A model generated the notes under the pieces. That model was not told the origin of the DNA. It saw only the letters and a program-made list of their open reading frames with translations, and ran no database searches. A stretch of 64,000 nt of DNA, taken from Gallionellaceae bacterium. Lineage in GTDB: Bacteria > Pseudomonadota > Gammaproteobacteria > Burkholderiales > Gallionellaceae. Made by a program: the position numbers and the translations under genes. Location of the stretch: the NCBI GenBank assembly GCA_037446515.1, contig JBBIIN010000001.1, forward strand, positions 45,556 to 109,555, written 5' to 3'. Below, piece by piece: positions 2,538-55,821 of this stretch (the stretch's first letter is position 1; the number at the start of each line of letters is the position of its first letter).

Positions 2538-2554
2538 GCACAAGGAGCTAGAAC

Positions 2555-2812: not shown

Positions 2813-2833
2813 GCGCTGCAAGCAATCCGCAGG

Positions 2834-5073
<2,240 letters not shown>

Positions 5074-10761: not shown

Positions 10762-10871
10762 TGTTTTTGCAGCTTGGATTGTAGGAGGAAACGCCCAGTG
10801 CGGCGCGAACTTTCACGCCCCCTGCCGCCGTGCTAGCATTGCGCCGCTTCCTTAATCCAGCCCGCTTGCTT

Positions 10872-12161
10872 ATGCCCATTCAACCCCTCTCCCCCATCGG
10901 CCTCGCCGTGCTTGCCATTTTTTGCACCGGGATGCTGCTCATCGTCCTCGAAGCGAAGCTGCATATCGACAAGTTCAAATCCGCTTTGTTCATGCTGAGC
11001 GCATTTTTGCTGATCGGCCTCCACTACTGGACGAGCGGGGACGCCCCCGGGCGTTTCGAACCCTTCATCGAAATGCAAAAAGAGAACAAGGTCGAGCTGT
11101 TCTCGCTGATCGCCTTCATGGCCTTCATGTGGATGATCGTCGAGATCCTCGCGGAGCGCGGCGTGTTCAGCGCACTCAACAGCTGCCTGGTCAGCCGCGG
11201 GCTGGGCGCGGTACAGATGTTCTGGGCCACCGGCGCACTGGCCGCATTGCTGTCGCCCTTCATCAACAATATCACTGCCGCGATGATCTTCGGCAAGTCC
11301 ATCCAGGGCATCTCGCGCGATCAGCGCTACACCCATGCGGCGTTATGCAACATCATCATCGCCTCCAATTCCGGCGTGTGGTTCCTCGGCACCGCCACCA
11401 GCCTGATGGTGGTGCTGGCCGGCAAGATCAGCATCCTCGGCCTGCTCGCCCTGCTGCCCGCATCCCTGCTCGGTTGGGCGGCCAGCGCGGCAGTGCTGCA
11501 CAAGTTCTACCTGAACCGGCTGGAAGGCGATCTGATCGCGCGCAGCAGTGATGATGATGCCGCGCTTAAACAGGGGGGCTGGGGCATGGTGTTCTTCGGC
11601 GTGCTGGCGGTGGCTGCCGCCGTGCTGGTGAACATCGTGCTGCACATCGACATCGAATATGCCCTGGGCATGGGGCTGGGCATCATCGGGATCTATGCAT
11701 GGCGGCTGAAGCGGCAGGGCATAGACGTGAAAATGCTGGTGCAACTGCAAAAGGTGGAATGGAACACGCTACTGTTTTTCATCGGCATCATCAGCGGTGT
11801 GGCCGCGCTCAACCACACCGGCTGGCTGACCTATATCTCGCACCTGTTCGAGGTGTTGTCGCCCACTGCGGTGAACGTGCTGCTGGGCGTGCTGTCCGGC
11901 GTGCTGGACAATGTTCCGGTGGAAGCCGCAGCGCTGATGTCCGCCCCGAACCTAGGCGATTCGCAATGGGCGCTCAACGCGCTGATGGTCGGCATAGGCG
12001 GCAGCCTGACCGTGATCGGCTCGGCCGCCGGGGTGATGATGATGTCCATAGACAAGAGCTACAGCTTCGCCGCACACCTGCGTTTCCTGCCAGCCATCCT
12101 GGTCAACTTCTTCGTCTCGCTCGGCCTGTGGTATGTGCAATTCGAGATGCCGGGCTGGTGA
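10872..12161 (+). CDS. NhaD/ArsB-family (IT superfamily) cation:H+ antiporter-like transporter
   Basis: Many TM helices; SPFINNITAA, SGVLDNVP and GGSLTVIGSAAGV motifs typical of NhaD. Confidence 0.8.
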   Translation: MPIQPLSPIGLAVLAIFCTGMLLIVLEAKLHIDKFKSALFMLSAFLLIGLHYWTSGDAPGRFEPFIEMQKENKVELFSLIAFMAFMWMIVEILAERGVFSALNSCLVSRGLGAVQMFWATGALAALLSPFINNITAAMIFGKSIQGISRDQRYTHAALCNIIIASNSGVWFLGTATSLMVVLAGKISILGLLALLPASLLGWAASAAVLHKFYLNRLEGDLIARSSDDDAALKQGGWGMVFFGVLAVAAAVLVNIVLHIDIEYALGMGLGIIGIYAWRLKRQGIDVKMLVQLQKVEWNTLLFFIGIISGVAALNHTGWLTYISHLFEVLSPTAVNVLLGVLSGVLDNVPVEAAALMSAPNLGDSQWALNALMVGIGGSLTVIGSAAGVMMMSIDKSYSFAAHLRFLPAILVNFFVSLGLWYVQFEMPGW

Positions 12162-12167
12162 CACGCC

Positions 12168-12242
12168 ATGTTCATCGAATTGTTCATCCTGATCGTGCTG
12201 GTCGCCGTGGTGGTCATCGCGCTGCGGCCGCCCAGGCAATGA
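12168..12242 (+). CDS. Putative 24-aa single-TM small protein MFIELFILIVLVAVVVIALRPPRQ
   Basis: ATG 6 nt after the antiporter stop, GC3-rich codons, ~17 hydrophobic residues followed by a basic tail. Below the ORF-track size cutoff. Confidence 0.55.
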   Translation: MFIELFILIVLVAVVVIALRPPRQ

Positions 12243-12263
12243 AAAAGGGGGCTTGCGGCCCCC
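12242..12263 (-). terminator. Intrinsic terminator between convergent nhaD/sORF and pbpG
   Basis: GGGGGC/GCCCCC stem, with a T5 tract on the minus strand. Confidence 0.7.
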
Positions 12264-12289
12264 CCTTGCACACGCTGCTGTCAGCAGCC

Positions 12290-13198
12290 TCAACCGCGGC
12301 GGCTGACTATATCCGTGCGCACATTCGCGCTTTCCATCCAGCGCTTGATACGGTTGGCATCGCCCACGCGCGTATGCCTGCCCCAGGAGTCCAGCAGCAC
12401 GATCACCACCGGACGGCTGGAGATGTTCGCCTGCATTACCAGGCAACGCCCCGCTTCGCTGATGTAGCCCGTCTTGCTCAGGCCGATATCCCACGACGAG
12501 CTGCGCACCAGCGGATTGGTGTTGTTGAAACGCAAGGTGCGGCGCGCGGAAACCTGCACTACATGGGAATGGGAGGTGGTGCTGCGCTGGATGTCCTCAT
12601 AGCCCTGCGCGGCCATCACCATGCGCACCAAATCCTGCGCGGTGGAGACATTGCTGCTGTGCAAGCCGGTGGGATCATCGAAACGTGTGGAATTCATCCC
12701 CAACTCGCGCGCCTTGGCATTCATCATGGCCAGCGCGACCTGGGTGCCGCCGGGATAGGTGCGCGCCAGCGCGGCGGCGGCGGTGTTCTCGGAAGCCATC
12801 AGCGCCAGCTTGAGCAACTCGCCGCGCGTCAGCGTCATGCCCACGCGCATGCGCGTGCGCGTGCGCTTGAAATGATCCATGTCCTGTGCGCCGATGGTGA
12901 TGGGCTCGTCCAGCGGCAAGCGCGCATCCAGCACCACCATCGCCGTCATCAGCTTGGTGATGGAAGCGATCGGCACCACGTTGTCCACGTTCTTCGCGTA
13001 GATCGGCTGCTGTGCCTGCTCGTCATAAATCAAGGCGATCGCCGAAGCCAGGCGCGGCCCGGCTGATTTACCCGCTTGCGCGCCACTATCTGACTTGGTG
13101 TGATGGTGGGGTTGCGCATGGTGGTGTGGCAACGCCTGCGCAGACAAGGCATAGAAGGCATAGCCGGACAACACAACGGCGATCAACACATTACGCAT
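12290..13198 (-). CDS. pbpG: D-alanyl-D-alanine endopeptidase (PBP7, peptidase S11)
   Basis: Signal peptide; SITK, SEN and KTG motifs; SD AGGGGGAA before ATG 13198. Confidence 0.88.
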   Translation of the reverse strand: MRNVLIAVVLSGYAFYALSAQALPHHHAQPHHHTKSDSGAQAGKSAGPRLASAIALIYDEQAQQPIYAKNVDNVVPIASITKLMTAMVVLDARLPLDEPITIGAQDMDHFKRTRTRMRVGMTLTRGELLKLALMASENTAAAALARTYPGGTQVALAMMNAKARELGMNSTRFDDPTGLHSSNVSTAQDLVRMVMAAQGYEDIQRSTTSHSHVVQVSARRTLRFNNTNPLVRSSSWDIGLSKTGYISEAGRCLVMQANISSRPVVIVLLDSWGRHTRVGDANRIKRWMESANVRTDIVSRRG

Positions 13199-13279: not shown

Positions 13280-15061
13280 CTAATGCTCCTCCTGTTGCTG
13301 CAAAGACCACATCCGCGCATAAGCCCCCTGCCGCTCCAGCAATGCGCGATGGGTGCCGCGCTCGATGATGCGTCCTTGCTCCATCACCAGTATCTGTTCC
13401 GCCTCGACGATGGTGGACAGGCGGTGCGCGATGACCAGCGTGGTGCGGTCGCGCGCAATGCTGCGCAGTTCATCCTGGATGGCTTTCTCCGAATGCGAAT
13501 CCAGCGCCGAGGTCGCCTCGTCGAAGATCAGGATGGCCGGGTTCTTCAGGATGGCGCGCGCGATGGCCACGCGCTGCTTCTCTCCGCCCGACAGCTTGAG
13601 GCCGCGCTCACCTACCATGCTGTCATAGCCCTGCGGCAGCGACTCGATGAAGTGGTGGATGTGCGCCGACTGCGCGGCGCGCAGCACCTCTTCGCGCGTG
13701 GCGCCGGGACGGCCATAAGCGATGTTGTAATAGAGGGTGTCGTTGAACAGCACCGTGTCCTGCGGCACGATGCCGATGGCGGTGCGCAGGCTGGCCTGGG
13801 TCACGCTGCGGATGTCCTGCCCGTCTATCGTGATCGCCCCCGCATTCACGTCATAGAAACGGAACAGCAGCCGCGACAGCGTGGACTTGCCCGCACCGCT
13901 TGCCCCTACCACGGCCACCGTATGCCCAGCCGGTATCTCGAAATCCACTTGGTGCAGGATAGGGCGTTCCGGGTCATAGGCGAAGCCCACGCGGTCGAAA
14001 CGCACCGTACCCCGGCTGAGCTGCAAAGGCAGTGCATCCGGCGCATCCTCCACTTCACGGTGCACATCCAGCAGGCGGAACATGCGTTCCATGTCGGCCA
14101 GCGCATTCTTGATCTCGCGATAGACGAAACCGAGAAAATGCAGCGGCATGTAGAGTTGCAGCATGAACACATTGACCAGCACCAGGTCGCCCACCGTCAT
14201 TCTGCCCTGCGCCACCTCGTCCGCCGCCAGCAGCATGAGCAGCGTCAGACCGATGGCGATGATGATGCTCTGTCCCGCGTTCAGCGCCGCCAGCGAAGTC
14301 TGGTTCTTCACCGCCGACACTTCCCAGCGCTGCATCTGCTCGTCGTAACGCGCCACCTCGTACTGCTCGTTGCTGAAATACTTCACCGTCTCGTAATTGA
14401 GCAGACTGTCGATGGCGCGCGTGTTGGCCTTGGAATCCATGTCGTTCATGGTGCGGCGGAACACCATGCGCCATTCGGTGATCCACAGCGTGAAGCCGAT
14501 ATACAGCACCAGCGTAACGAAGGTGATGATGGCGAACCACGGGTCGTATTTGACGAACAGGATGCCCGCCACCAGGGCGATCTCCAGCAGCGTGGGCAGG
14601 ATGTTGAACAACATGAAGGTGAGCAGGAAACTGATGCCGCGCGTGCCGCGCTCGATGTCGCGCGACACCCCGCCGGTCTGCCGCTCCAGATGGAAGCGCA
14701 GCGAAAGGTTGTGCAGGTGCGCGAACACTTGCAGCGCCACACGGCGGATGGCGCGCTGCGTGACCTTGGCGAACAGGGCATCGCGCAACTCGCCGAACAA
14801 GGTGCTGAACAGGCGCAGCAAGCCGTAAGCGATGATGAGCGATACCGGCACCACCAGCATGGCGCGCGGCTGGCCCATCGCATCCACGACTTCCTTCAAC
14901 GCCAGCGGCACCGCCACATTGGCCAGTTTGGCCAGCACCAGCAGCACGACCACCGCGATGACGCGCCCCTTGAATTCCAGCAGATAGGGAACAAGACTGC
15001 GGATCACGCGCCAGTCAGTGCGGGCGGCGGCGGAGGTATGCGGAGAACTGAAGGAATGCAT
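13280..15061 (-). CDS. ABCB-type fused ABC transporter, Atm1/ABCB7-like
   Basis: TM domain + GASGAGKST, LSGGEKQRVAIAR, DEATSALD; NYETVKYF motif. Confidence 0.9.
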   Translation of the reverse strand: MHSFSSPHTSAAARTDWRVIRSLVPYLLEFKGRVIAVVVLLVLAKLANVAVPLALKEVVDAMGQPRAMLVVPVSLIIAYGLLRLFSTLFGELRDALFAKVTQRAIRRVALQVFAHLHNLSLRFHLERQTGGVSRDIERGTRGISFLLTFMLFNILPTLLEIALVAGILFVKYDPWFAIITFVTLVLYIGFTLWITEWRMVFRRTMNDMDSKANTRAIDSLLNYETVKYFSNEQYEVARYDEQMQRWEVSAVKNQTSLAALNAGQSIIIAIGLTLLMLLAADEVAQGRMTVGDLVLVNVFMLQLYMPLHFLGFVYREIKNALADMERMFRLLDVHREVEDAPDALPLQLSRGTVRFDRVGFAYDPERPILHQVDFEIPAGHTVAVVGASGAGKSTLSRLLFRFYDVNAGAITIDGQDIRSVTQASLRTAIGIVPQDTVLFNDTLYYNIAYGRPGATREEVLRAAQSAHIHHFIESLPQGYDSMVGERGLKLSGGEKQRVAIARAILKNPAILIFDEATSALDSHSEKAIQDELRSIARDRTTLVIAHRLSTIVEAEQILVMEQGRIIERGTHRALLERQGAYARMWSLQQQEEH

Positions 15062-15100
15062 GGCAGGCGGGCGCGATAGAACCGGCCCGCATTATAACGG

Positions 15101-17155
15101 CTAAGTATTATCCGGATGCGCCGCCTTGCCGTAGTAATAGCCCTGCGCGCAGCACACCCCGATCTCGGCCAGCATGCGCGCCGTCGCCTCGTCCTCGACG
15201 AATTCGGCGATGGATTTCATGCCGAACTCCTGGGCCACCTGATGGATATGGCGCACCATGATGCGGTCGCGCTCGTCCACCACCATGTGCTGCACGAAGC
15301 TGCCCTCGATCTTAATGAAGTCCACCGGCAGGTATTTGAGATACAGGAAGGAAGAGAAGCCGCTGCCGAAATCGTCCAGCGCGAACTGGATGCCGCACTC
15401 GCGCAGATATTCGATGACATGCCGCACATTGTTGATGTCGGGCAGCGCCTCGCGCTCGGTGACCTCCAGCACGACGTGGCGGCAGGGGATGCCGGCAGCG
15501 CGCAGTTGCGCCGGGATGCCGCGCATCCATTCATCATCGCGCAGCGTGAACGCCGACATATTGAAGAACAGCTTGGCAGCAGGATGCTTCGCCAGGATGG
15601 CCGGCAGGTATTTCAATCCCTTGGCGAACACGCGCTGGTCGATCTCCTTGACCATGCCCAGTTCGGACGCGGCCTCGATGAACTGGCCGGCCGCCATCAC
15701 GCTGTCGCCGTCGAGGATGCGCGCCAGCGTCTCGAACGCCATGATGTCGCCGCTGGCCACGCTGACGATGGGCTGCAGGTGCGCCTCCACGCGGTCTTCG
15801 ATCAACGCGCGGCGCAGATATTCGCCCTGCTGGAAGATCACCATCGCGCTGTTGTCCTCGCCGCCGCCGGTCAGCACCTGATTCTTGCCGCCGCGTTTGG
15901 CCTTGTACAGCAGCACATCCATCGCCGTCAGCAGCGCTTCCTTGCTGTCGCCGTCCTCCGGGAAATTTACCACGCTGAAGCTGGCCGACAGGGTTACGTT
16001 GCCCACGGGCAGGATCACCGGCTTCTGGCGCATCATTTCATGCAGTTTTTGCGCCACCTGCAAGCCGTTGGCGGCCGGGGTTTCCGGCAGGATCACGGCG
16101 AACTCGTCGCCGCCCAGCCGCGCCATCATGTCGCCCTTGCGCAGCTCGCCCTCCAGCATGGCGGTCAATGACTTCAGCGCGATGTCCCCCACCGGGTGGC
16201 CGTAGGTGTCGTTGATGAACTTGAAATCGTCCAGGTCAATCATGATCAGCGAGAACTGATGATGATGGCGCTGCGCGCGCGTAACTTCGTATTCCAGGAA
16301 CTCGTCGAACTTGCGCCGGTTAAATAGCCCGGTCAGCGGGTCGCGCACCGACAATTCCTCCAGGCGCGCGTTGTAATCCTGCATGGCCTGCAGCAGGCGG
16401 TTGAAGTATTCCGACAGGCGCCTGAGTTCGACGATCAGGTGGCCGCCCGCAACGCGCTGATTGAAATCCATCCCGTGGGTGACCTGTTGCATCACCGCCA
16501 CCAGTTCGCCTATCGGGCGCACCACCAGATAGCGCAGTTTGAAATACAACAACAAAAACACGCCGCCGATCACCAGCAAGGTGTAGCCCACCAGGCTGTT
16601 GATGACATAGCTGAACGACACCTTGATTTCGTTGACGGGGTAACTGACATCGATCACCCCATGCACGGCGCCGATATGGGACTGGGTATGGCAGGCCAGA
16701 CACTCCGCCTCGGCGCGCAAGGGATACAGATAGCGAATGTTGTTGCCCCCCTCCGGGAACAACAGGCGGTCATTGCCATCCTGCAACGCCGCCGCGAGCA
16801 GGGCATCGCGCGCGATCGCCTCCGCCTCGCCCGACATGGCGCCGAACTGTTGCGCGACGATGGCGCCGCGATAGACGCCGATCTTTACTCCCGGCATGGC
16901 GTGGTTCAGACGCGCAATGACCTCGTGAATCTCCTGCTTGTTCCAGCCTTTGCGCATGGCCGAATACAGGCTCTGGAACACCAGGCGGGAGGTTTGCTGG
17001 GCATCTTCCTTGGCCAGCGCATGCACGGCACGATCCCGCATCGCCCCCGACAGGGAAAAGATCAGCCCGAAGGCCAGCAGCAATGCCATGGCCGACAACA
17101 ACAACATCAAACGCCCCAGCGAGATTTCGCGGATAAAACCGAACAGCCGAGCCAT
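15101..17155 (-). CDS. Membrane GGDEF-EAL protein with periplasmic heme-c (CxxCH) sensor and HAMP-like linker
   Basis: Two TM segments flank a domain containing CLACH (16688-16702); intact GGDEF; ETL and DDFGSGFSS in the EAL domain. Confidence 0.88.
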   Translation of the reverse strand: MARLFGFIREISLGRLMLLLSAMALLLAFGLIFSLSGAMRDRAVHALAKEDAQQTSRLVFQSLYSAMRKGWNKQEIHEVIARLNHAMPGVKIGVYRGAIVAQQFGAMSGEAEAIARDALLAAALQDGNDRLLFPEGGNNIRYLYPLRAEAECLACHTQSHIGAVHGVIDVSYPVNEIKVSFSYVINSLVGYTLLVIGGVFLLLYFKLRYLVVRPIGELVAVMQQVTHGMDFNQRVAGGHLIVELRRLSEYFNRLLQAMQDYNARLEELSVRDPLTGLFNRRKFDEFLEYEVTRAQRHHHQFSLIMIDLDDFKFINDTYGHPVGDIALKSLTAMLEGELRKGDMMARLGGDEFAVILPETPAANGLQVAQKLHEMMRQKPVILPVGNVTLSASFSVVNFPEDGDSKEALLTAMDVLLYKAKRGGKNQVLTGGGEDNSAMVIFQQGEYLRRALIEDRVEAHLQPIVSVASGDIMAFETLARILDGDSVMAAGQFIEAASELGMVKEIDQRVFAKGLKYLPAILAKHPAAKLFFNMSAFTLRDDEWMRGIPAQLRAAGIPCRHVVLEVTEREALPDINNVRHVIEYLRECGIQFALDDFGSGFSSFLYLKYLPVDFIKIEGSFVQHMVVDERDRIMVRHIHQVAQEFGMKSIAEFVEDEATARMLAEIGVCCAQGYYYGKAAHPDNT

Positions 17156-40311: not shown

Positions 40312-41718
<1,407 letters not shown>

Positions 41719-41740
41719 CGTTGCAACGACTCCGCAAAGC

Positions 41741-41766
41741 ACAAGCCCCGCCGCAGCGGGGCTTGT
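41741..41766. terminator. Hairpin between convergent purB and the giant gene
   Basis: ACAAGCCCCGC-CGCA-GCGGGGCTTGT. Confidence 0.75.
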
Positions 41767-41784: not shown

Positions 41785-44700
41785 TCAGCGATGGAATGCC
41801 GTCACGCCCGATACCACATTGCTGCCGTTCTGCAAGCCATAAGCCATCACCGCGCCGATCGCCCCTGCGCCGCTGAACTTGCCTACCACCGTCCCACCCA
41901 AGGTCGCGCCGCAAGTGCCGGCACAGCTCACATTCAGGTGCGAGGTGGTGCCCGCAGGTTCCTGGCTAGAGGCATAGAAAACCGTCCTCTGGATGATGGG
42001 GACATTGTTGCCTACCGCATTCAGCGTAGCGCCCGCCACCGTGACATTGACACCCATATTCACGGTGCGCGCCGTAAAGTCCGCCGTGAGGGTGGCCGAA
42101 TTCAATGTGCCGAGGTTACCCAGATTGTCCGTGGGCGTGGTGCCTCCCGCATTGACATAAGTGTAGGTCCCCACCACCGGCAACGTGGTCGCGCTGGTCG
42201 CTGCCGGCTCGGCAATCCAGTGCAGGCTGCCGGGTTGGGTCACTGGTGTGACAACACTGCTCAGGCGATCCGTGGCATTCATCGTGCCGCCCGCCCAGCG
42301 CCCCCAACTGATGCCGGTCGTTGCATCCGACCCGTGATCGGTCAATGTGCTGGTGTTGTTGGCAAAGGTCAGCGACGACCCGCCATTATTCTGGATGAAT
42401 TGTGTATCGAACTGGGTCAGGTTGCCCGCCACATCCTGGGTAACGCGTGTTGTGTTGTTGGCCCCGAATCCCAGCTCGGGCTGCGGAACCGGTCGGAAAG
42501 GATCATAGAACGAGACCGCGACATAACGATGGGAAGTGGCGGTATTCTGTGCCGGGCCGGTGAACGCTGCCACCCCGTTGATATTCTCGAACGAGGGCGA
42601 AGCCGCTGCCGGAGATATCTGCCCGCCCAACTGAAAACTCATGATGGCGCCATTCAGCCCAGCGCCCGTCAGTTGTCCGCTGATATTGGCGTTCGCATTC
42701 GCCACTGCCGTGGCTCCACCGTCCACCGTCACGTTCAGCAACCCCGACCCGCCGCCACCGCCAAAACTGGACGCATGGAAAGCTGCCGAACCTATTCCCT
42801 GGCCCATCCCCAAGACGGCTTCGCCACCTGCCGGGGTGCTGACTGCCCAGGTATGCGCGGCTGGCGTCGGAGCAACGCTGTTGACACTCACCGCCAAATT
42901 GATACCCACGGCCTGCCGGTTGAAATCCAGCGTCAGTGCGGTGGTACCCAGGATGGTGCCCGCCACGCCCGCATTGTTGCTGACCTGCCCGCCATTGAAG
43001 GTGTAACTGGCCGTGCCGGTCAGCGCCTGCGGCAAATAGAGCGGCCCGGCTTCCGGTCCGGTGATCCAGTAAGCAGGCGGCATCACACCGGCAGCCAAGG
43101 TGGAAGTATAGGACTGCAACCAGGAACCTGCCGTCCAGTTGCCGTAATAAATGCCGCTGCTCGCCACCTGTCCGGCGGCGGTGGAGGTACAGGTCGGGCA
43201 AGTCACCGTGGTGGTATAGCTGAACGTGTTGGGGGGAGTGCCGCTGCTTTGCCCGTAAGCCGTCAGCACATTGCCGGTCGTCGTCGTGGACAGTGCAGGA
43301 TAAGGAGCGATGTTGCCGCCATAATCCGCCACCAGAATGTTTCCGGTCGGCGCGGCTACGCCTTTCGCCACCACAGGGTTGGTGTTGCCCGCGAACTGCG
43401 AGGTCAGCGCCACATGTCCCGATGCATCCGTGCCGCCATTCGCATTGTTATGCAGAATGTAGCTAAGCATCGCCCCCTGGAAATTCTGCCCGGTGAACGC
43501 GCCATTCAGATTCCCGTCGCAAGTGCCGCAAGCCGTAAGCGGCACTGCCGCACCCACGCTGTGGGAAATCGTCATGGTGTTGGCAGGATTGCCGGGATTG
43601 GCAAAGCCATAGAACGCAGCGCCATTGCCCACCGCAAAATTGATGGGCACATTGGCCGCGCTGACCGCCCAGTTGTCGTTGCCCGGCATGGTCAGCGCCA
43701 GGTTGACCCCCGCCAGCATGGTGGCGAAATTGGCCGTCAGCGTGGCGATGCTCAAGGTGCCGCGCAAGCCGGTCAGATGACTATAAGGTGCGGTCGCGCC
43801 ATCCATCTGGTAAGTGAAGGTGGCCGCCATCGTCCCGCTCAACGCTGTCGCGGGCGCTACCGGCATATAGGCTGCGTCCACATAACCTTGCGGCCCGAAC
43901 ATCCAATCGAGCACACCTGGCCCGCCCCTTCCTCCCAACGTCATACTGTCATTGAAGGATAGCCCGGTATAGCCGGTCCACTGGCCATACTGGATGCCAG
44001 TCGTGGCAAAAGCAGGCGAATTGGCGCTGGTTGCCGTACCGCCCGTCGTGCTGTGAGTCGAGGTGTATGCGGCACCACCGCCCAAGTCGCGGAAGGTCAT
44101 GGACTGCAATGCGCCACTCGCCGCAGCGCCGCCCGCCGCCCCCGTCACATAGACCAGATCAGCCGGACTGGCCAACCCGGAGAAACCGTTCCCAATTTCC
44201 ACGGCGATATGGTTCGGGTTGTAAGCCTTATCCGGCCCCGGCGTCGGCGCGGTGCCGGTATAGAACGCCACGACGCCCTGGATGAGGTCCGTCACCAGCG
44301 AGTCCGCCGGGGCGGTCGGCCAGATCTTATAGGCCAGTTCCGCGCTCGTCGCCTGCGCACCGGCAAGGCCGCCGGTCAGCCAGCCAAGATAGCCTCCGGC
44401 ATTACATGCTCCTGCAACCACATTGCCACAAGTAACTGTCGGCGCAGTGTTGAGTTCCAGTGATCCCTCGAAGGACTCGGTGCCTGCAACAATCGGTATC
44501 GCCCCATTCGCAATGTTCATGTTTTTGTTGGCGATGGTGAACGCCACGCTGGCATTGACGGTCTGGGCAGTGAAGTTAACCGACAGCGACGACACCGGCA
44601 GCGTGCCGACATTGCCAAGCGAGTCGGTCGGCAAGGTGGCGCCCCCCTGGGTGTAGGTGGTGGTGCCCACCAGTTGTGGCACGTAGTCTGTCGGCACCGC

Positions 44701-47700
44701 TGCGGTCATGAACCAGTACGAGCTGGTTGCGCCCAGGTTTTTCACCAGCGTAGGCAAGACGCGCAGGTTGTCGGCGATGGTCATCTGCCCGCCGGTCCAG
44801 CGACCGATGATCAGGTTGTTGTCCGGCGTGATGTAACGGTCGCTGGCCACACCGCCGCTGTAGCTGACCAGCGCATCGGTAAACTGGTTGGCCGGTAACG
44901 ACGTTGCCGTTTGCAGGGAGCGTTCGTTATAGTTGGCGTGCAAGGAACGCACTAGGTTGCCACTGCCGTCCAGGATGAAGTTGGTTTCGGGAAATAACAA
45001 CCCCCCGTTGTTGAATCTGCCTCTTTCCCACGCATTGGTCGTCCCTACCAGCATATGTCCGCCAGCAAACCAGTTGCCTGCAGGCGGGAAGGTCGGCCCG
45101 GTCGGCGCAGTAGTTGCCGTGAACGCCACGACGCCCTGCACTAGATCGGTAACTGGCGATCCGGGCGTAACGGTGGGCCATAGGTTATAACCCACCACCA
45201 CACTGGCCGCAGCATTTCCGGTAAAGGTGCCGCCCACGTCCGCGCTGTACCCGGCAGCACCAGCCGCACAGGTGCCCGTGGTGCCCGTGCAAGAAACAGT
45301 CGGCGTGATATTGCCGCCGAACCCGCCATAGCCTTGGCCGGTAGCAACGGTGTTGATCGCCATGCCATTGGCCGTGATGGCATAAGTGCCGGCCATGCTG
45401 GAAGCGACAGGCATCGTGAGATTGAGTGCGGCATTGACCAACTGACTGGTGAAGTCGGCCACCAGGGTCGCGGAATTCAGCGTACCCACATGGCCGGCGG
45501 TATCGAACGGCGCGACCGCACCAGCCTGAACATAGGTCGTCGTTCCGATCAATGATTGGACATAGCCCACGTTCGGCGTCAACAGCACGCCCCACAAGCT
45601 GCTCGCGGGCGTATAGGTGTACAGGGTCAAATTGCTGATGGGATCTTTCACGGTGATGGTCGGATTCACCCAGCGACCGAAATAGATGCTGTTATCCGCC
45701 AGCTTGAAGGTGTCTGCCGCCGTGCCGCCGCTCCAGGTCATGTCGACATTGCCAATGCTGAGCGTCGGCGTTGTCAGCAACGGCTGGATGGCGAATGCCG
45801 TGCTGCGCATTTCGACCAGGTTGCCGTTGCCATCCAGGACATAGGTCGTATGGGCAAGCTGGGTGTTGCTGTACTCCTGCGCCATGTCGAAACCGCCGCC
45901 TGTCCGCGGCACCGGCATCGCAAAATGACCGAGGAAATTGTTGCTGACCACCGCCGGGTTGTTGTAGGCGGCAATGGGTGCATTAGCCGCAACAGTGGCA
46001 GCATTGGTGTTGATGCCAGCCAACGGTGCAGAGGTATTGGCCAGTGCGGTGGCAGCAGCGCCGGCTGCCGTGGTAGCGTTGCCCGCCGCAGTCTGGGCGC
46101 TGGCGGCTGCCGTGCTGGCGTTGCCCGCCGCAGTAACCGCAGCGTTGACCAAGGTGGCAGCAGTATTATTTGCGGTTTGCGCAGTAGCCAGTAAATTGAC
46201 CAGCGCTGTGCTGGCGCTCTGCGCGATGGCAAGCTGCTGCCCGGCCTTGGCCTGCTCCTGCTGGGCGATTGCCAATTGCGCCGCCGCACCGGTCAAATCG
46301 CCCGCAGATTGCAAGGCTGCCGCCTGGGTTGCGGCAGTCTGCGCAGCTTGCGCGGCCGCTGCGGCGAGATTGGCTGCTGCCTGGGCATTGTTCGCCAAGG
46401 TGGCGGCGTTAGTCTGGGCACTGGTAATGGCTGTATTCTGCGCCGCGACTGCGCCCACGTTATTGTTCGCCGTAGTCAGGCTGCCGTTGGCCGCTGCAAG
46501 CGCGCTATTGGCCGCTGTCTGCGCATTGCCCAAAGCGGTGTTCTGGCTGGTAACGGCTGCCGCATTGGTTTGCACACCGGTATTGGCGGTTTGCAGGGCA
46601 GTGTTGGCGGTTTGCAGGGCAGTGTTGGCGGTAGGCGCTGTCACATCGGCGAAAGCGCCATGCGCCGTAATGGCGGCCTGTGCCGCCGTTGCCTGGCTGC
46701 CCGCCGTCGTCGCCGCAGTTTGCGCAGTCGTTTTGTTGGCGGCAGCCGCCACCGCATTTGCTGGCTGCAAAGCGGTTGCATTGGCTACGGCCAGCGTGGC
46801 GCCTGTCGTCGTGGTGCCAATGGCGGTCGTGGCATTATTGATCGCTGTCACGGCAGGCGCAGTGCTGACCAGGCTGATCGCCAAGAGCACGGCCTTGGCA
46901 GAAGCAGCGGCAGCCGCAGCCGCAGCCGCATTTTGCGCAGCCTGCGCCGCAGCCAGGGCAGCGGCGTCCGCCTGTGTTGCATAGATCCCGTTCTGCACCG
47001 AGGTAACCGTTGTGCCCGACGAGATCGTTTGGGCCGAGGCGTTCAGGCTGAGCGCGCCATTGGAGGCAGTTACCGGTATCGTCTGCTCAATGCCGGGAGC
47101 CAGGCTGACGGCGCGAATGACCGCAGCGGGAGCGGGTGCAACAGCGGCCTGCACTGCCGCTGCGGGCGTGGTGTTGTCCACGACGGCGGTATTACGCACT
47201 GTCTGTTGCGCGCTTTCTTGCGGGGCATTGCCCGCGTCGGCCTGCGGCGCTGCCCCCCGCTCGTCACCATCCGCCCTTTCTTGCGGGGCATTGCCAGCGT
47301 GGGTCTGGGATGCCTCACCCTGCCCAGCCTTATCCTTTGCCGCGATGCGCTCCTCGCGCGGCGCCGCCGCCACGGTAAAGATGGCGGTGTTGACCGGTCG
47401 TATCTGCGGCATCTGGTCCATGCCCCCGGCAAATCCCATCTGGTTGGGCAAGACGTTGATGGTGCCCAGCCGGGTTGTCAGCGTCGTCTCGCCGATATTC
47501 ACCTTGCTGTAAGCGCCGGCCTGCGCACCGGGCAACCCGCTGGGCAGATAGAGGGTCTCATGGTCGGTGCCGCGTATGCCTATGGTGGCCACAGGTGTGT
47601 TGATACGGTAGTCCTGTTTGTTGACGCGCCCGATCAATCCGGTAATCGCGCGGAAGCCACCCTTAAACAAGGAATAGACGCTGCGCTCGGGTTCCCCGAC

Positions 47701-47988
47701 CCTGCCGGAAAACTTGAAACTGTCGAACTTGAGTTGGGTGTCCGGGCGCACCGCGATGAATCCGCCATCCTTCATCTTGATCTGCACCGAGGCGTTCGCC
47801 GCAGTACGCACGGTGTCGCCTTCTTCTATCGTTGCACCCTTCTGCAAAGCACGTATTGAACCGCTTGCCGGTACCAGAGTGGCCTGCCCGTTCACGAATT
47901 GCACATAGCCGGCGGTCGCTGCCCACGCGGATTGCGCCAGCACCATCGTTGCCGAGGCAACCATCAAGATAAGTTTGCTGTTTTGCAT
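41785..47988 (-). CDS. 2067-aa exported protein: signal peptide, FecR-like domain, Ala-rich stalk, five TbpB-like handle/beta-barrel modules
   Basis: AWA cleavage site with no lipobox; FecR-like GDTVRT..A...DG..I.V.P.T.L and TP.A.IGIRGT; five repeats of G.W..G...W....G..TY...GTL..A.L..DF....V...G..AF. Confidence 0.8.
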   Translation of the reverse strand: MQNSKLILMVASATMVLAQSAWAATAGYVQFVNGQATLVPASGSIRALQKGATIEEGDTVRTAANASVQIKMKDGGFIAVRPDTQLKFDSFKFSGRVGEPERSVYSLFKGGFRAITGLIGRVNKQDYRINTPVATIGIRGTDHETLYLPSGLPGAQAGAYSKVNIGETTLTTRLGTINVLPNQMGFAGGMDQMPQIRPVNTAIFTVAAAPREERIAAKDKAGQGEASQTHAGNAPQERADGDERGAAPQADAGNAPQESAQQTVRNTAVVDNTTPAAAVQAAVAPAPAAVIRAVSLAPGIEQTIPVTASNGALSLNASAQTISSGTTVTSVQNGIYATQADAAALAAAQAAQNAAAAAAAAASAKAVLLAISLVSTAPAVTAINNATTAIGTTTTGATLAVANATALQPANAVAAAANKTTAQTAATTAGSQATAAQAAITAHGAFADVTAPTANTALQTANTALQTANTGVQTNAAAVTSQNTALGNAQTAANSALAAANGSLTTANNNVGAVAAQNTAITSAQTNAATLANNAQAAANLAAAAAQAAQTAATQAAALQSAGDLTGAAAQLAIAQQEQAKAGQQLAIAQSASTALVNLLATAQTANNTAATLVNAAVTAAGNASTAAASAQTAAGNATTAAGAAATALANTSAPLAGINTNAATVAANAPIAAYNNPAVVSNNFLGHFAMPVPRTGGGFDMAQEYSNTQLAHTTYVLDGNGNLVEMRSTAFAIQPLLTTPTLSIGNVDMTWSGGTAADTFKLADNSIYFGRWVNPTITVKDPISNLTLYTYTPASSLWGVLLTPNVGYVQSLIGTTTYVQAGAVAPFDTAGHVGTLNSATLVADFTSQLVNAALNLTMPVASSMAGTYAITANGMAINTVATGQGYGGFGGNITPTVSCTGTTGTCAAGAAGYSADVGGTFTGNAAASVVVGYNLWPTVTPGSPVTDLVQGVVAFTATTAPTGPTFPPAGNWFAGGHMLVGTTNAWERGRFNNGGLLFPETNFILDGSGNLVRSLHANYNERSLQTATSLPANQFTDALVSYSGGVASDRYITPDNNLIIGRWTGGQMTIADNLRVLPTLVKNLGATSSYWFMTAAVPTDYVPQLVGTTTYTQGGATLPTDSLGNVGTLPVSSLSVNFTAQTVNASVAFTIANKNMNIANGAIPIVAGTESFEGSLELNTAPTVTCGNVVAGACNAGGYLGWLTGGLAGAQATSAELAYKIWPTAPADSLVTDLIQGVVAFYTGTAPTPGPDKAYNPNHIAVEIGNGFSGLASPADLVYVTGAAGGAAASGALQSMTFRDLGGGAAYTSTHSTTGGTATSANSPAFATTGIQYGQWTGYTGLSFNDSMTLGGRGGPGVLDWMFGPQGYVDAAYMPVAPATALSGTMAATFTYQMDGATAPYSHLTGLRGTLSIATLTANFATMLAGVNLALTMPGNDNWAVSAANVPINFAVGNGAAFYGFANPGNPANTMTISHSVGAAVPLTACGTCDGNLNGAFTGQNFQGAMLSYILHNNANGGTDASGHVALTSQFAGNTNPVVAKGVAAPTGNILVADYGGNIAPYPALSTTTTGNVLTAYGQSSGTPPNTFSYTTTVTCPTCTSTAAGQVASSGIYYGNWTAGSWLQSYTSTLAAGVMPPAYWITGPEAGPLYLPQALTGTASYTFNGGQVSNNAGVAGTILGTTALTLDFNRQAVGINLAVSVNSVAPTPAAHTWAVSTPAGGEAVLGMGQGIGSAAFHASSFGGGGGSGLLNVTVDGGATAVANANANISGQLTGAGLNGAIMSFQLGGQISPAAASPSFENINGVAAFTGPAQNTATSHRYVAVSFYDPFRPVPQPELGFGANNTTRVTQDVAGNLTQFDTQFIQNNGGSSLTFANNTSTLTDHGSDATTGISWGRWAGGTMNATDRLSSVVTPVTQPGSLHWIAEPAATSATTLPVVGTYTYVNAGGTTPTDNLGNLGTLNSATLTADFTARTVNMGVNVTVAGATLNAVGNNVPIIQRTVFYASSQEPAGTTSHLNVSCAGTCGATLGGTVVGKFSGAGAIGAVMAYGLQNGSNVVSGVTAFHR
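46583..46632. repeat. Exact 21-bp tandem repeat (2.4 copies) in the stalk
   Basis: TTGGCGGTTTGCAGGGCAGTG x2 + TTGGCGGT, encoding heptads TALQTAN. Confidence 0.95.
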
Positions 47989-48013
47989 ATCTCACCTCAC
48001 TGCGATAAAGGAG

Positions 48014-49534
48014 TCATCTGAAGTCGTAATGCAACGCGACCGACACGTCGGCGCGGCTGAAGCTGTATATGGGGATGTTGGAGCTGTTGCGGGACACGCT
48101 AATCTGGGGCTTGAACGTCCAAGCCTTGTCCACATGCCAGTTTGCGCCCACGCTGACATCCCACAACTGGTCGTTGCGCGTAATCAAGAACGCCAGGTTC
48201 TGCCTGTTGTATTTGCCGCGCTGCCAGCCTATGCCACCGAAACAGTCCCAAGCCTCATTCAAGGTCAACTGCCCGCCAGCGCGCAAGCCGAACAGGGCCT
48301 TGTTGCCATCCGGGCGACCGCCATTGGGATTCAGCGTAGTAACCGGCGCAACGGCAGATTCGCGTCCGCCAAAAAAACTGCCAAAGACTGACGATTTGCC
48401 TTCGGCAAGGACGTGCAGCCAGCTTTCACCAAACAGAAAGAGATTATGGTTCTGCGGCTCCATAGCGTTGGTGATGAAACGGTTCTGGGTAAATTGGCCA
48501 AATATGGCCAATTGATCCGCCGGCCCGGCGGGATGCCGCCATTCCAGCGACAACCCGCTGGTGTCGCGATTGACTTTGTAGCCCTGTCCGAGACGGTACT
48601 GGTCGCCGCTGATCCCCAGCCGCACCGTGTCGCCCTCTTGGTTGTAGAACACGCCGGCATGTGCGGCGAGGTCAACCGAGTTAAAGGTGTTCTGCTTGAC
48701 GTGGCCGCGCATGCGCGCATCTGCCCCGGCATAAATCCCCAGCGCCTCTCCCAGCAAATGGGTAACCTCGGCGCCTCCCGCAAAGCTGCCGTAACTGTCG
48801 GCAGTCTTGAGGCTGGTCGGATTCAGCGTGAACACCAGATTGCCGAATGCAGGGACGGGTATCTGCGCCTGGCTGGTCGCCCCGTTCACATTGCTGTCAT
48901 GCCCAAGCGCTTCTTCAAAATAAGCGGTGACCCGAGTCTTCCTGGCCTGTTCCTGCGCGCGGATGGCATTCAGGTATTTCTGGATGGTGGCGCGCGCCAT
49001 CTCCGGCGGATTCTGTCTCATCACCGTATTGAATTCGGTTTTGGCACGCTCCAGGTCGCCCAGCTGGTAATAGGCTCGCGCCATATCCAGACGCGCCCCC
49101 GCGAAATTGGGATCCACTGCCAGCACGCGCTCGAATGCCAAGGTCGCCTTGTCTGGCTTGCCGCTATCAAGGGCCGAGATACCGAGCAGATAGTCGAAAT
49201 GGACCTCCCCCGAGCGCTCGAACTCGTGGGGCAACAACAACTCATACGCTTCCCCTGGCCGGTTCGCACGCATCAGCGACTCGGCGTCGTTGAGCAGCTT
49301 TGCCTTGGCCTGCGCTTCTTTTTTCATCGCTTCGGCTTTGGCACGATCTTCCGCCTCCATTTCCGCCCTGATCCTTGCCGTTTCTGCGTCAACCGCAGAC
49401 GTGTCCGACGCTGATTGCGCAAGGCCGGATGAAGCAGCCGGAACGGGCATTGTTTCCTCGGGAAAAGCCATTCCTGAAAACAGCGACATGGCAAACCATA
49501 ACAACCCGCATCCAGACATCTGCATTTTTGACAT
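48014..49534 (-). CDS. TPR + outer-membrane beta-barrel protein, Slam/DUF560 (type XI secretion)-like
   Basis: Signal peptide; TPRs (A..AFERVLAVDPNFAGARLDMARAYYQLG); GHDSNVN barrel start; amphipathic strands; ends HYDFR. Confidence 0.78.
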   Translation of the reverse strand: MSKMQMSGCGLLWFAMSLFSGMAFPEETMPVPAASSGLAQSASDTSAVDAETARIRAEMEAEDRAKAEAMKKEAQAKAKLLNDAESLMRANRPGEAYELLLPHEFERSGEVHFDYLLGISALDSGKPDKATLAFERVLAVDPNFAGARLDMARAYYQLGDLERAKTEFNTVMRQNPPEMARATIQKYLNAIRAQEQARKTRVTAYFEEALGHDSNVNGATSQAQIPVPAFGNLVFTLNPTSLKTADSYGSFAGGAEVTHLLGEALGIYAGADARMRGHVKQNTFNSVDLAAHAGVFYNQEGDTVRLGISGDQYRLGQGYKVNRDTSGLSLEWRHPAGPADQLAIFGQFTQNRFITNAMEPQNHNLFLFGESWLHVLAEGKSSVFGSFFGGRESAVAPVTTLNPNGGRPDGNKALFGLRAGGQLTLNEAWDCFGGIGWQRGKYNRQNLAFLITRNDQLWDVSVGANWHVDKAWTFKPQISVSRNSSNIPIYSFSRADVSVALHYDFR

Positions 49535-49684
49535 AGCACCGCGCCCCTATAACACCATGCTCGACTTATTAACCACCACGCAAAAAATGCTAGGCTTCTC
49601 CACTGCCCCAGTCAAATAATCCCGACGAAATTGATGCAGAATTGGCTCTGCGCATCTGACATCAATTTGCCGGCAGCACAAACA

Positions 49685-49710
49685 ACAAGCCCCGCTCTCG
49701 CGGGGCTTGT
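49685..49710 (-). terminator. panD terminator hairpin
   Basis: ACAAGCCCCGC-TCTC-GCGGGGCTTGT, with TGTTTG downstream on the minus strand. Confidence 0.75.
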
Positions 49711-53716: not shown

Positions 53717-54670
53717 TCAGCGTTGCAGCTTCATCTCCAGTTCGGTGTTCTCGCCTTTGCGAACCGAGACTTTCTCCGATGCCGGCTTATGGCCGTCCAG
53801 CCTGACGCTGACCTCATGCACACCCGCAACGGCCTCGGCGCGCAACGGGGTCAGCCCGAAATAGATGCCATCCACATAGACCTTGGCGCGGGAGGGCGCT
53901 GAAACCACCACCAGCGTGCCGCCAGCGGTTTCCGCCGCCGGGGCTGCCACAACCGAAGACGCTGCCGCGACCTCATTGCTGAGGATGGAAACCCCCTGCA
54001 CCGGCTTGATGCCGACCACCATGTGGAACAGTTCTGGACGGGTGGCCATCAGCACGGACAGGATGGAATCCGCCGTCTTGCCCATCACGATGCCCAGTTC
54101 TTTCTTCAGGTATTCCGCCACATCCTTCTTGTTGTTGCCGGAGACCCCGGCAAAGCGATCGCCTTTTTCCACGACCACGCCAGACCAGATCACCTTGCCG
54201 CTGGCCGTCTCGGTGAGCGTGGACTCGATGGCGATGCTGACATAGTCGCGCTCCTTCACGTTGATGGTCAGGTCTTTCACCGTACCGCTCAACTGGAATT
54301 GGGCGGGCGTTTCACCTTCTGTCAGCACCTGCATGCCGGCCTTGGTGAAATGCCTCCTGGCCGCAGCGGCAACCACCTCGGCAACGTCGCGATCCAACAT
54401 GATGTCCCGGCCTGCCATTCCCAAGATGCGGCTGGTGGCGACACCGGCACGGCGCGGGCTGTCCAGGTTGCGCGCATCGGCATAGGTGCCGACGCGCAAG
54501 GTGAGCGGATATTCCCCACGCTTGGCCAAGGCAGCGTTGCCATCTTCGCGCACATGGATCTCGTTGCCGGAATCGGCCATGTCGCCCGGCAACATGGCAC
54601 AGCCCGTAAGAATGAGCAGCAACGCCCCCGCAGTGGCGCGCAAATAGCCTGGCATGCGGGACAAAAGCAT
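53717..54670 (-). CDS. Lipoprotein with YajG-like N-domain and C-terminal PEGA domain
   Basis: Lipobox LTGC; PEGA pattern S.PSRAKVYVDG..FG.TP...G.H.V.V...G.K. Start may be 54655. Confidence 0.7.
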   Translation of the reverse strand: MLLSRMPGYLRATAGALLLILTGCAMLPGDMADSGNEIHVREDGNAALAKRGEYPLTLRVGTYADARNLDSPRRAGVATSRILGMAGRDIMLDRDVAEVVAAAARRHFTKAGMQVLTEGETPAQFQLSGTVKDLTINVKERDYVSIAIESTLTETASGKVIWSGVVVEKGDRFAGVSGNNKKDVAEYLKKELGIVMGKTADSILSVLMATRPELFHMVVGIKPVQGVSILSNEVAAASSVVAAPAAETAGGTLVVVSAPSRAKVYVDGIYFGLTPLRAEAVAGVHEVSVRLDGHKPASEKVSVRKGENTELEMKLQR

Positions 54671-54674
54671 AATA

Positions 54675-55271
54675 TCAGCCTCGCGCGATGACGGCTTCGA
54701 TCTCGGCGAAGGTGCGGGCCAGCTCGAAACTCTGCACTTGTGCGCCCAGCTGACGCGCGATCTGCGTGATGGAGAACAGGCCGCAGATGGCCTGCTGCCC
54801 GTCAGCTGCGGTGGACACCACCAGCGTGTGCTGGCGATGTGCCTTTTTCAGGCTGGCGACGATGTCGCCGACCTTGGCATTCTGCACGTCCTTGATGTTC
54901 AATACTTCCATCTCGCGCTGCGTGGTCATCACGTCGCGCACCATGATGTCAGCATGCGTGCCACCCATATTCTGCAGGAAGCGCATCGGCTTCTCGCCCA
55001 GGATGTCGGACGCGGTGATCAGCCCCGCCACCTGCTCGTTGTCATCCAGCACCAGCAGCATGCGCACGCCATACTTGATCATCTTGGCGTTGGCCTTGTC
55101 CATCGGCGTCTTGGCGCGCACACTGATCACCGAGACCTTGGTCAGGTCGGTCATCACGTCGGTGGCCGGGTTGCCGAGCTTGACCCGCTCCGGCAATACA
55201 TGCACCGGGCGCAAGAAGGAAGAACCCGTTTTCAGCGGGACGGAAGGCAGTGCAGTGTAGTTGGTCGTCAT
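54675..55271 (-). CDS. CBS-domain protein
   Basis: ATDVMTD, VAGLITASDI, VRDVMT; SD GGAG. Confidence 0.8.
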   Translation of the reverse strand: MTTNYTALPSVPLKTGSSFLRPVHVLPERVKLGNPATDVMTDLTKVSVISVRAKTPMDKANAKMIKYGVRMLLVLDDNEQVAGLITASDILGEKPMRFLQNMGGTHADIMVRDVMTTQREMEVLNIKDVQNAKVGDIVASLKKAHRQHTLVVSTAADGQQAICGLFSITQIARQLGAQVQSFELARTFAEIEAVIARG

Positions 55272-55305
55272 GTTTTCTCCTGATTGGTACATCTTGTGTT
55301 TGTTT

Positions 55306-55821
55306 TCAGCATTGCCGGCGCAGCGGCAACGCATGGGTACTCTGCCGTTCCACCGGCAGATACCGCACCAGTTCGTTCAGCGCCATGCGGTACACCTCGC
55401 GCTTGAACTCGATCACGCTTTCCATCTCGACCCAATAGTCGCTCCAACGCCAGGCATCGAATTCCGGGTGCTCGGTCGCCCGCAGTGACACGTCGCAGTC
55501 GCGCCCCGTCAGGCGCAACAGGAACCATATCTGCTTTTGCCCCTTGTAATGCGAGCGCGATTCCCTCTTTCCCCAGCTCTGCGGCACGTCGTAGCGCATC
55601 CAGTCGCGTGTGCGGCCCAGGATGCGGACATGGCACGAATGCAGGCCGACCTCCTCGTGCAGCTCGCGGTACATCGCCTGCTCCGGCGTTTCGCCATGTT
55701 GGATGCCGCCCTGCGGAAACTGCCACGCATCCTGCTTGATGCGCTTGCCCCAAAACACCTGATTCTTTGCGTTGGCCAGAATGATGCCGACATTCGGGCG
55801 ATAACCTTCGCGGTCTATCAT
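55306..55821 (-). CDS. rppH: RNA pyrophosphohydrolase
   Basis: [43 protein letters not shown]. Confidence 0.96.

Follow-up and report, generated by a model that had tools for sequence, protein, structure and literature searches.

We analyzed a 64-kb stretch of DNA from a Gallionellaceae bacterium (assembly GCA_037446515.1, contig JBBIIN010000001.1), hereafter the window, whose own numbering is used throughout. Two genes on its minus strand, lying 25 bp apart at 48014-49534 and 41785-47988, had been singled out in a sequence-only reading as a co-oriented pair, and the open reading frames (ORFs) of 506 and 2067 aa bear this out. The first encodes a protein of the Slam/DUF560 outer-membrane type, and the second a large Sec-dependent protein with a FecR-like head, a low-complexity spacer and five homologous modules. 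Given the family architecture, the fold and the genetic linkage, we regard it as highly probable that the two genes form a type 11 (Slam/DUF560) secretion system (T11SS) cassette, and we refer to their products in that sense as exporter and cargo. The pair comprises the following features.

48014..49534, minus strand: exporter gene, Slam/T11SS-type outer-membrane protein, 506 aa, 55 kDa (ORF and homologues)
49463..49534, minus strand: probable Sec signal peptide of the exporter, approximately aa 1-24, with the hydrophobic stretch GLLWFAMSLFSGMA, read from the sequence by eye
48944..49384, minus strand: periplasmic helical/TPR domain of the exporter, aa 51-197 (Pfam TPR hits and AlphaFold2 helices)
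48020..48937, minus strand: 14-stranded beta-barrel of the DUF560/SlipAM type, aa 200-505 (AlphaFold2 model)
41785..47988, minus strand: cargo gene, 2067 aa; mature protein 203.7 kDa, isoelectric point 5.3
47920..47988, minus strand: Sec (signal peptidase I) signal peptide of the cargo, aa 1-23, ending in AWA before the first mature residue, A
47344..47919, minus strand: FecR-domain head of the cargo, aa 24-215, with the GIRGT(D) motif
45961..47343, minus strand: low-complexity Ala/Thr/Asn/Gln-rich spacer ("stalk"), aa 216-676, 461 aa (composition)
45091..45960, minus strand: module 1, handle plus barrel, aa 677-966, Cys900/Cys907, profile E 1.3e-25
44230..45090, minus strand: module 2, aa 967-1253, Cys1187/Cys1195, profile E 3.2e-30
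43372..44229, minus strand: module 3, aa 1254-1539, Cys1487/Cys1490, profile E 3.3e-15
42541..43371, minus strand: module 4, aa 1540-1816, Cys1597/Cys1600, profile E 6.9e-10
41788..42540, minus strand: module 5, C-terminal handle plus barrel ending GVTAFHR, aa 1817-2067, profile E 9e-122

The probable exporter and its cargo

The exporter had been described as a TPR protein with a beta-barrel, and both parts were recovered. Pfam detects TPR_19 (E 1.3e-11), TPR_2 and TPR_16, and the AlphaFold2 model, built on an alignment of the exporter and 26 homologues (48-68% identity to the exporter), places helices at residues 51-197 ahead of a barrel of exactly 14 strands at residues 200-505. The predicted local distance difference test score (pLDDT) averages 82 for the model as a whole and exceeds 90 over most of the barrel. 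Slam proteins are defined by a TPR N-terminal domain and a predicted 14-stranded DUF560 barrel (PMC5449769), and the modeled exporter thus matches the published architecture; its match to Pfam TPR_Slam is weak and falls under the cut-off. The comparison with DUF560/Slam profiles, proposed earlier as a check, came out in favor of the family, with 26 of the 27 scanned sequences matching SlipAM (PF04575; best E among the 26 homologues 1.6e-13), but not of the window protein itself, which is the one without a match. Rescanned singly, P0030, P0067 and P0012 scored 32.7, 37.9 and 29.3 bits (cut-off 22), over positions 6-288 of the 288-position model. More than 1000 homologues of the exporter were recovered (E down to 1e-224; named sources are Gallionella, Sideroxydans, Nitrosomonadales and Georgfuchsia), most with a precomputed PF04575 assignment, and the exporter would belong to this family through transitive homology only. 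The public gene call for the exporter (P0001, 448 aa) begins only at Met59 and omits the signal peptide (49358-49534); the longer 506-aa ORF fits an outer-membrane protein better, given its hydrophobic N-terminus and homologue lengths of 470-540 aa.

The cargo is, as first supposed, a protein of approximately 200 kDa (203.7 kDa when mature), and its assignment as Sec-exported and free of a lipobox also stood. The N-terminus reads MQNSKLILMVASATMVLAQSAWA followed by ATAGY, a signal peptide judged by eye, and signal peptides are kept among the relatives in the head alignment; there is no lipobox, since the first cysteine is residue 900. Pfam places FecR at residues 58-142 of the cargo (30.6 bits, cut-off 24), in agreement with the FecR-like head of the sequence-only reading; when the head is scanned by itself the score is 35.4 bits, and FecR (PF04773) matches 31/31 aligned heads. 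Across these heads G-I-R-G is invariant and the next Thr-Asp nearly invariant (here IRGTDH, aa 137-142, 47563-47580); in FoxR, an anti-sigma factor of the FecR type, self-cleavage takes place at a Gly-Thr on the periplasmic side (PMC11637429). The head profile also matches RIN, the N-terminal domain of the Marinomonas ice-binding adhesin MpIBP (PDB 5ix9), at E 8.5e-6 (hhalign 94.7%), in an alignment that spans only approximately 65-75 residues, and the RIN segment is marginal against Pfam FecR (E 0.096).

Behind the head lies the long stalk that had been anticipated, a spacer of 461 aa in which alanine makes up 37% and threonine 15% as counted over residues 301-690. Tandem Repeats Finder returned no substantial DNA array in the spacer, finding only short arrays of 2-4 copies, and among relatives the spacer ranges from 35 to 866 aa. 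Pfam and NCBIfam searches of the cargo and of each module returned FecR plus a weak Lsa33 match only, with no RTX or Ig-like Pfam match.

Five lobes had been proposed for the remainder of the protein, and five homologous modules do occupy aa 677-2067; the TbpB-like barrel is modeled for module 5, and its extension to modules 1-4 is by homology. The modules were detected with a profile from relatives of module 5 and aligned with motif anchors, MAFFT and a hidden Markov model. They are 251-290 aa long, are 24-35% identical to module 1, and have in common the anchors G-x-W, G-T-x-T-Y, G-T-L…L…(D/N)-F and G-V-x-A-F together with one close Cys pair each. The sequence ends ...VSGVTAFHR, as had been stated, and a barrel-terminal GV(A/T)AFHR C-terminus is conserved among relatives; module 5 is presumed to be the T11SS targeting domain. 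Structure prediction was decisive for the predicted fold of the modules. The AlphaFold2 model of module 5 (27 relatives in the alignment; pLDDT 94.1, predicted template-modeling score 0.91) shows an all-beta handle leading into a barrel, and in the Foldseek comparison suggested for the lobes, here carried out with module 5, all 50 matches listed are hemophilin/HphA, fHbp, TbpB or LbpB. The top PDB match is HphA 8gmm (E 7.7e-7), and Acinetobacter hemophilin 7re4 is also listed.

Conserved pairing and association with CHASE2 cyclases

When one genome from each GTDB species was scanned for the module, with 8 close sequences as query, 60 loci emerged, mostly in Gallionellaceae metagenome-assembled genomes, with others in Burkholderiales, Noviherbaspirillum and Ramlibacter and, among the Gammaproteobacteria, in Woeseiaceae, Halieaceae and Nevskiaceae. 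The co-occurrence of FecR plus TbpB-barrel proteins with DUF560, another of the checks put forward earlier, is close to complete: a DUF560-type gene lies directly upstream on the same strand in approximately 51 of the 51 loci with upstream DNA, and four apparent exceptions in the automated count trace to a frameshift, contig ends and the overlap filter. Starting from the exporter side, a FecR protein (1731, 808 and 1142 aa) is encoded 32-86 bp downstream of the gene for 3/3 homologues. The flanking genes of these three differ from genome to genome, which indicates that the pair is kept as a unit while its genomic position shifts. One of the three is from the cultured Georgfuchsia toluolica, and experiments on the pair are therefore feasible.

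The plan of the cargo is constant in the 60 loci, with a FecR head, a low-complexity spacer and one to six modules (one module in 19 cargo proteins, two in 8, three in 18, four in 12 and six in 3). An exhaustive profile search of 1.84 billion representatives extended the family to 1623 clusters (50% identity) at E <= 0.001, with 963 at E <= 1e-10, and to a range of 1-8 modules, the largest member having 3351 aa and 8 matched stretches. An initial impression of rarity, from a word-index search that returned 31 relatives of module 5, was overturned by these 1623 clusters. Database names for the family members are "hypothetical" or "FecR domain-containing". In one Gallionellaceae relative of 2808 aa (P0152), the same head and modules are accompanied by a Pfam TbpB_B_D barrel (46.9 bits).

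Individual loci vary on this plan. In P0152 the TbpB_B_D barrel sits ahead of the last module, and the spacer contains a Lys/Glu/Ala-rich stretch and then repeats of a Cys-bracketed motif, C..P..GCSAVLP; judging by its matching head sequence, P0152 is probably the protein of locus L010. Locus L011 (2511-10774) holds a tandem duplication, with a DUF560 gene, a 280-codon head-only FecR ORF, a second DUF560 gene and a four-module cargo, and L005 has a second DUF560 gene downstream of the cargo.

In addition to the exporter, a gene for a CHASE2 adenylate/guanylate cyclase adjoins the cassette in approximately 16 of the 60 loci and in a further Gallionella locus, L062. Loci with this linkage are L037-L039, L042, L043, L047-L051 and L053, and also L013, L015, L028, L055, L060 and L062. 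The genes frequently form a tight same-strand array of four, encoding the CHASE2 cyclase, the DUF560 protein, the FecR-headed cargo and a cyclic nucleotide (cNMP)-binding protein, the last of which combines cNMP-binding, pyridine-nucleotide-disulfide oxidoreductase and 4Fe-4S domains; L048 provides an example at 5584-13047. Most Gallionellaceae loci have no CHASE2 gene within 10 kb. FecR-domain proteins also pair with CHASE2 kinases in Burkholderia (PMC5192318), and in the literature searched we found no experimental link between FecR and CHASE2.

Proposed mechanism and alternative explanations

Our best full explanation, which we consider likely in its core, is a T11SS cassette whose cargo has surface lobes and, more tentatively, a periplasmic head that would act as a stopper. 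Sec would carry both proteins to the periplasm, as read from their signal peptides. The 506-aa protein would form a 14-stranded barrel in the outer membrane, with its TPR domain on the periplasmic side, an arrangement whose architecture is modeled and whose location is taken from knowledge of the family. The exporter would then recognize the C-terminal handle-plus-barrel module and thread the unfolded cargo outward, after which the five hemophilin/TbpB-like modules would fold at the cell surface; recognition, translocation and surface folding are suggested by the fold similarity, the conserved adjacency and published Slam biochemistry. The FecR-like head would fold in the periplasm as the stopper, with the Ala/Thr-rich spacer passing through the translocon or alongside it, and a long multi-lobed fiber would be tethered to the cell. 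By analogy with all characterized T11SS cargo, a binding or adhesive role of the lobes is the likeliest.

Several results weigh against this explanation. The exporter gave no match to Pfam SlipAM/PF04575 at E <= 0.1. The modules have no Pfam match, including to TbpB_B_D (PF01298) and FHBP_C (PF08794), a PDB sequence/profile search with the cargo or its modules (E <= 10) returned no match, and when the module profile was compared by hhalign with the canonical TbpB_B_D segment of the relative P0140, the GxFxG motifs aligned but the match fell short of significance. The link of the modules to TbpB-like cargo is consequently structural and contextual only, and the cargo is classed at the level of fold and context rather than as a member of PF01298. 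The structural link has its own limits, as the models cover the exporter and, among the lobes, module 5 only, and the Foldseek matches of module 5 have modest TM-scores (0.33-0.42) and large root-mean-square deviations, possibly owing to a differing orientation of the two sub-domains. Finally, a search for RNA runs with the sequence found none, and only subsurface-metagenome DNA runs and contigs hold the locus.

Retention of the head in the periplasm is a tentative element of the scheme, to which we give a little less than even weight. The cargo has no lipid anchor, and retention is suggested by the match to RIN, the unfolded-only transport by Slam1 and the pairing of periplasmic FecR domains with CHASE2. 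RIN is a periplasmic plug or retention module that holds giant RTX adhesins in the outer-membrane pore (Guo et al.; Smith et al.). Slam1 translocates TbpB only when it is unfolded (PMC9090332), and an early-folding head could therefore not follow the chain. The FecR domains characterized to date are periplasmic, and in other bacteria periplasmic FecR-domain proteins are genomically paired with periplasmic CHASE2 sensors. Retention is opposed by the release of known soluble T11SS cargo such as hemophilin, by the short extent of the similarity to RIN, and by the 64-kb window, in which no CHASE2 or cNMP gene was found. A further step, which we hold to be rather unlikely, would make the system a new outer-membrane fiber tether on a T11SS translocon, possibly with transmembrane signaling in which the head serves as the periplasmic input of CHASE2. 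The cargo may in that case span the outer membrane through or beside the Slam barrel, and in lineages with a CHASE2 operon surface events may be coupled to cyclic-nucleotide signaling.

The same T11SS pair could instead release its cargo completely, as a soluble scavenger or matrix protein with the head as an extracellular binding domain, and this is a real possibility, though we lean away from it. Soluble Sec-dependent T11SS cargo is well documented (PMC12282271), the cargo has no lipobox, and the best structural matches of module 5 are to the secreted hemophores HphA and hemophilin; the head, on the other hand, resembles a periplasmic retention domain, characterized FecR domains are periplasmic, and relatives are linked to CHASE2 cyclases that sense the periplasm. 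These linked cyclases are also the basis for a reading in which the lobes sense and the FecR head relays the signal across the outer membrane to a CHASE2 cyclase and on to a cNMP-binding effector, the cyclase being encoded elsewhere in this genome. The approximately 16 of 60 loci with an adjacent cyclase, often in an apparent four-gene operon and in one Gallionella locus as well, and the FecR-domain/CHASE2 kinase pairing in Burkholderia (PMC5192318) are consistent with such a relay, but the window has neither a CHASE2 nor a cNMP gene, most Gallionellaceae loci have no CHASE2 within 10 kb and the literature searched holds no experimental FecR-CHASE2 link, and we consider it improbable here.

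That the cargo stays in the periplasm and never crosses the outer membrane, with the exporter an unrelated neighbor or a docking site, is very improbable. The periplasmic location of FecR domains in known proteins would fit it, but the structural relatives listed for the modules are T11SS cargo proteins that are displayed on the surface or secreted, the GV(A/T)AFHR barrel end is conserved and the pairing with DUF560 is obligate. We give still less credence to the already disfavored view that the exporter is a TPR-barrel protein of another type, such as a BcsC/PelB/PgaA-like polysaccharide porin whose position next to the cargo gene is unrelated to protein secretion. In a Foldseek comparison of the exporter model with the PDB, the lowest E values did go to BcsC (3e-13) and PelBC, but the best TM-scores went to OmpG and CymA, and these generic-barrel matches would also give no preference to a 16-stranded polysaccharide porin. 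A sequence/profile search of the PDB with the exporter returned TPR proteins only and no sequence-detectable Slam entry, so that Foldseek could return no Slam from this copy of the PDB and is unable to confirm the family. The 14 strands of the model, the homologues that exceed the SlipAM cut-off, the strict pairing with the cargo gene across differing flanks and the lack of polysaccharide synthase genes among the annotated neighbors all argue against a porin.

Genomic setting and comparison with known systems

The cassette lies among core housekeeping genes: mnmA, mscS and purB flank it at one end and panD, panC, DUF2652, coaBC and dut at the opposite end, with TamB, IDH, ClpA-like, SecD, aspS and proS farther out. 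No TonB receptor occurs among the annotated neighbors, as the sequence-only reading had noted. Its claim of low GC content did not hold: the cargo gene has 62.3% GC and the exporter gene 58.4%, compared with 62.1% in purB (not 67%) and 61.5% in the window, and just 16% of the 60-bp lines of the cargo gene are at <=55%. The idea of a foreign, low-GC island was dropped on grounds of this composition. The signals around and between the two genes are listed below; the promoter and terminator calls are consensus matches only.

47989..48013, minus strand: intergenic spacer of 25 bp, with a Shine-Dalgarno sequence, GAGGTGA, 5 nt 5' of the cargo ATG
49587..49615, minus strand: promoter-like site TTGACT-17-TAGCAT, approximately 50 nt upstream of the exporter gene (consensus scan only)
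49685..49710, no strand assigned: hairpin ACAAGCCCCGC-N4-GCGGGGCTTGT separating panD from the cassette; resembles a terminator when read on the minus strand
41741..41766, no strand assigned: second copy of the hairpin, ACAAGCCCCGC-N4-GCGGGGCTTGT, between the convergent purB and cargo stop codons

The two-gene cassette is probably a single transcription unit. A consensus scan found no promoter- or terminator-like site inside the 25-bp spacer, and promoter-like matches are no commoner in such a scan than expected from shuffled sequence. The hairpin at 41741..41766 is probably a bidirectional terminator. The two copies are the only ones in the 64-kb window and bracket the cassette exactly, where shuffles expect 0, and in loci L003 and L024 the stop codon of the cargo gene is likewise followed by this hairpin. 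An 11-mer, GCGCATCTGAC, lies approximately 21-24 nt upstream of each hairpin (at approximately 41709-41719 and 49652-49662), its left copy being the extreme 3' end of purB. The right hairpin copy thus looks like a duplicated purB end with its terminator, which hints at insertion of the cassette at the purB terminator.

Elsewhere in the window, two ORFs at 13283-15079 (plus strand, 598 aa) and 2534-3955 (minus strand, 473 aa) are without a Pfam match at E <= 1e-5, and their third-position GC (0.64-0.65) is below that of the other large ORFs; each may encode an unannotated protein or be spurious. A HAMP-GGDEF-EAL protein of cyclic di-GMP signaling is encoded at 15101-17155 (minus strand), approximately 25 kb from the cassette, and a PEGA-domain protein adjoins a CBS-domain protein at 53717-55334 (minus strand), approximately 4 kb upstream of it.

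Surveys of T11SS recognize ten DUF560 clusters, of which only the animal-associated cluster 1 has characterized members, and cargo has so far been predicted beyond cluster 1 only for the marine cluster 3 (PMC8406197; PMC12282271). The systems verified by experiment all belong to animal-associated bacteria, and their exported proteins are lipoproteins or hemophores that are small and have one or two lobes; the cargo architectures predicted to date are hemophilin-, TbpB-, fHbp- and LbpB-like, Pls-like, those with a disordered N-terminus and those of Sphingomonas and Psychrobacter (PMC8406197; PMC12282271). Neither of these two main surveys mentions FecR, Gallionella or Sideroxydans, and the hemophilin preprint does not have FecR as a cargo domain, naming it just as a neighboring regulator gene. 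In the literature searched we found no paper that combines DUF560 with Gallionella and no description of this cargo type, and one supplementary file of the Sideroxydans ES-1 transcriptome paper contained no FecR or DUF560 entries. The earlier proposal of an undescribed class of large T11SS protein therefore stands for the FecR-headed architecture. The protein itself has many relatives, and earlier work has described cargo that carries 2-3 handle-barrel pairs (PMC12282271).

The locus is thus a known type of secretion system in an uncharacterized environmental clade, one that includes Gallionellaceae, other Betaproteobacteria and sediment Gammaproteobacteria and has a strictly linked cargo of undescribed, large and widespread architecture, possibly anchored in the cell envelope through its FecR-like head. 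If this is true, type 11 secretion extends to multi-lobed proteins of 50-340 kDa in iron-cycling groundwater bacteria, with a lipid-free anchoring principle borrowed from the plugs of RTX adhesins, and CHASE2, a common sensor domain without a known ligand, gains a possible partner that can be tested.

Among characterized exporters, Neisseria Slam1/2, Xenorhabdus NilB and Acinetobacter HsmA have, like the window protein, a periplasmic TPR domain and a 14-stranded barrel, and adjoin a gene for Sec-dependent cargo with a C-terminal handle and 8-stranded barrel. The characterized members all belong to the animal-associated cluster 1 (PMC8406197), whereas the present clade consists of groundwater and sediment Beta- and Gammaproteobacteria, and the window exporter has no adjacent TonB-dependent receptor and is divergent enough to miss the Pfam model. 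Similarly, each module of the cargo resembles hemophilin/HphA, TbpB, LbpB and fHbp in having a beta handle and then an 8-stranded barrel, with strand motifs G.Y.G...G.L..A.L..DF at the start and G.F.G....G...Y......GV.AF at the end. The cargo differs from these proteins in having five lobes rather than one or two, no lipid anchor, a FecR head with a 461-aa spacer, and modules without a sequence-level match to TbpB_B_D or FHBP_C. Also comparable are the multi-TbpBBD surface proteins of the "Sphingomonas" and "Psychrobacter" types and the Pls-like proteins, all predicted or proven T11SS cargo, which have 2-3 handle-barrel pairs or, before the barrel, a long repetitive N-terminal spacer (PMC12282271). 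Those proteins (Grossman et al., 2025) are mostly lipoproteins with Pro-Thr, PTD-repeat or alpha-helical EEARKA N-termini and no FecR head, whereas the family described here reaches 8 modules and 3351 aa.

Beyond type 11 secretion, the cargo may be compared with the giant RTX adhesins of the LapA/MpIBP type, whose RIN retention module (5IX9) is matched by its head profile; in the cargo, too, a putative small N-terminal beta domain would precede a spacer and a very long extracellular C-terminal region that would be exported C-terminus first. RTX adhesins use type 1 secretion through a TolC-like pore, with a C-terminal type 1 signal and no Sec signal; the cargo, in contrast, has a Sec signal and a Slam partner, no RTX or Ig-like repeats and no adjacent type 1 secretion genes, and its plug role is hypothetical. 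With the FecR-type anti-sigma factors (FecR, FoxR, PupR) it has in common a FecR domain above the cut-off and a Gly-Thr in GIRGT(D) that recalls, and may correspond to, the FoxR cleavage site. As in the periplasmic FecR/CHASE2 proteins (COG4254 LysM-FecR), some of its relatives adjoin a CHASE2 gene. The cargo differs from the anti-sigma factors in that it has no cytoplasmic anti-sigma domain or transmembrane helix, and its neighbors are purB and panD rather than an extracytoplasmic function sigma factor or a TonB-dependent transducer; instead, its cleavable signal peptide leads straight into the FecR domain, which forms the tip of a protein of 200 kDa.

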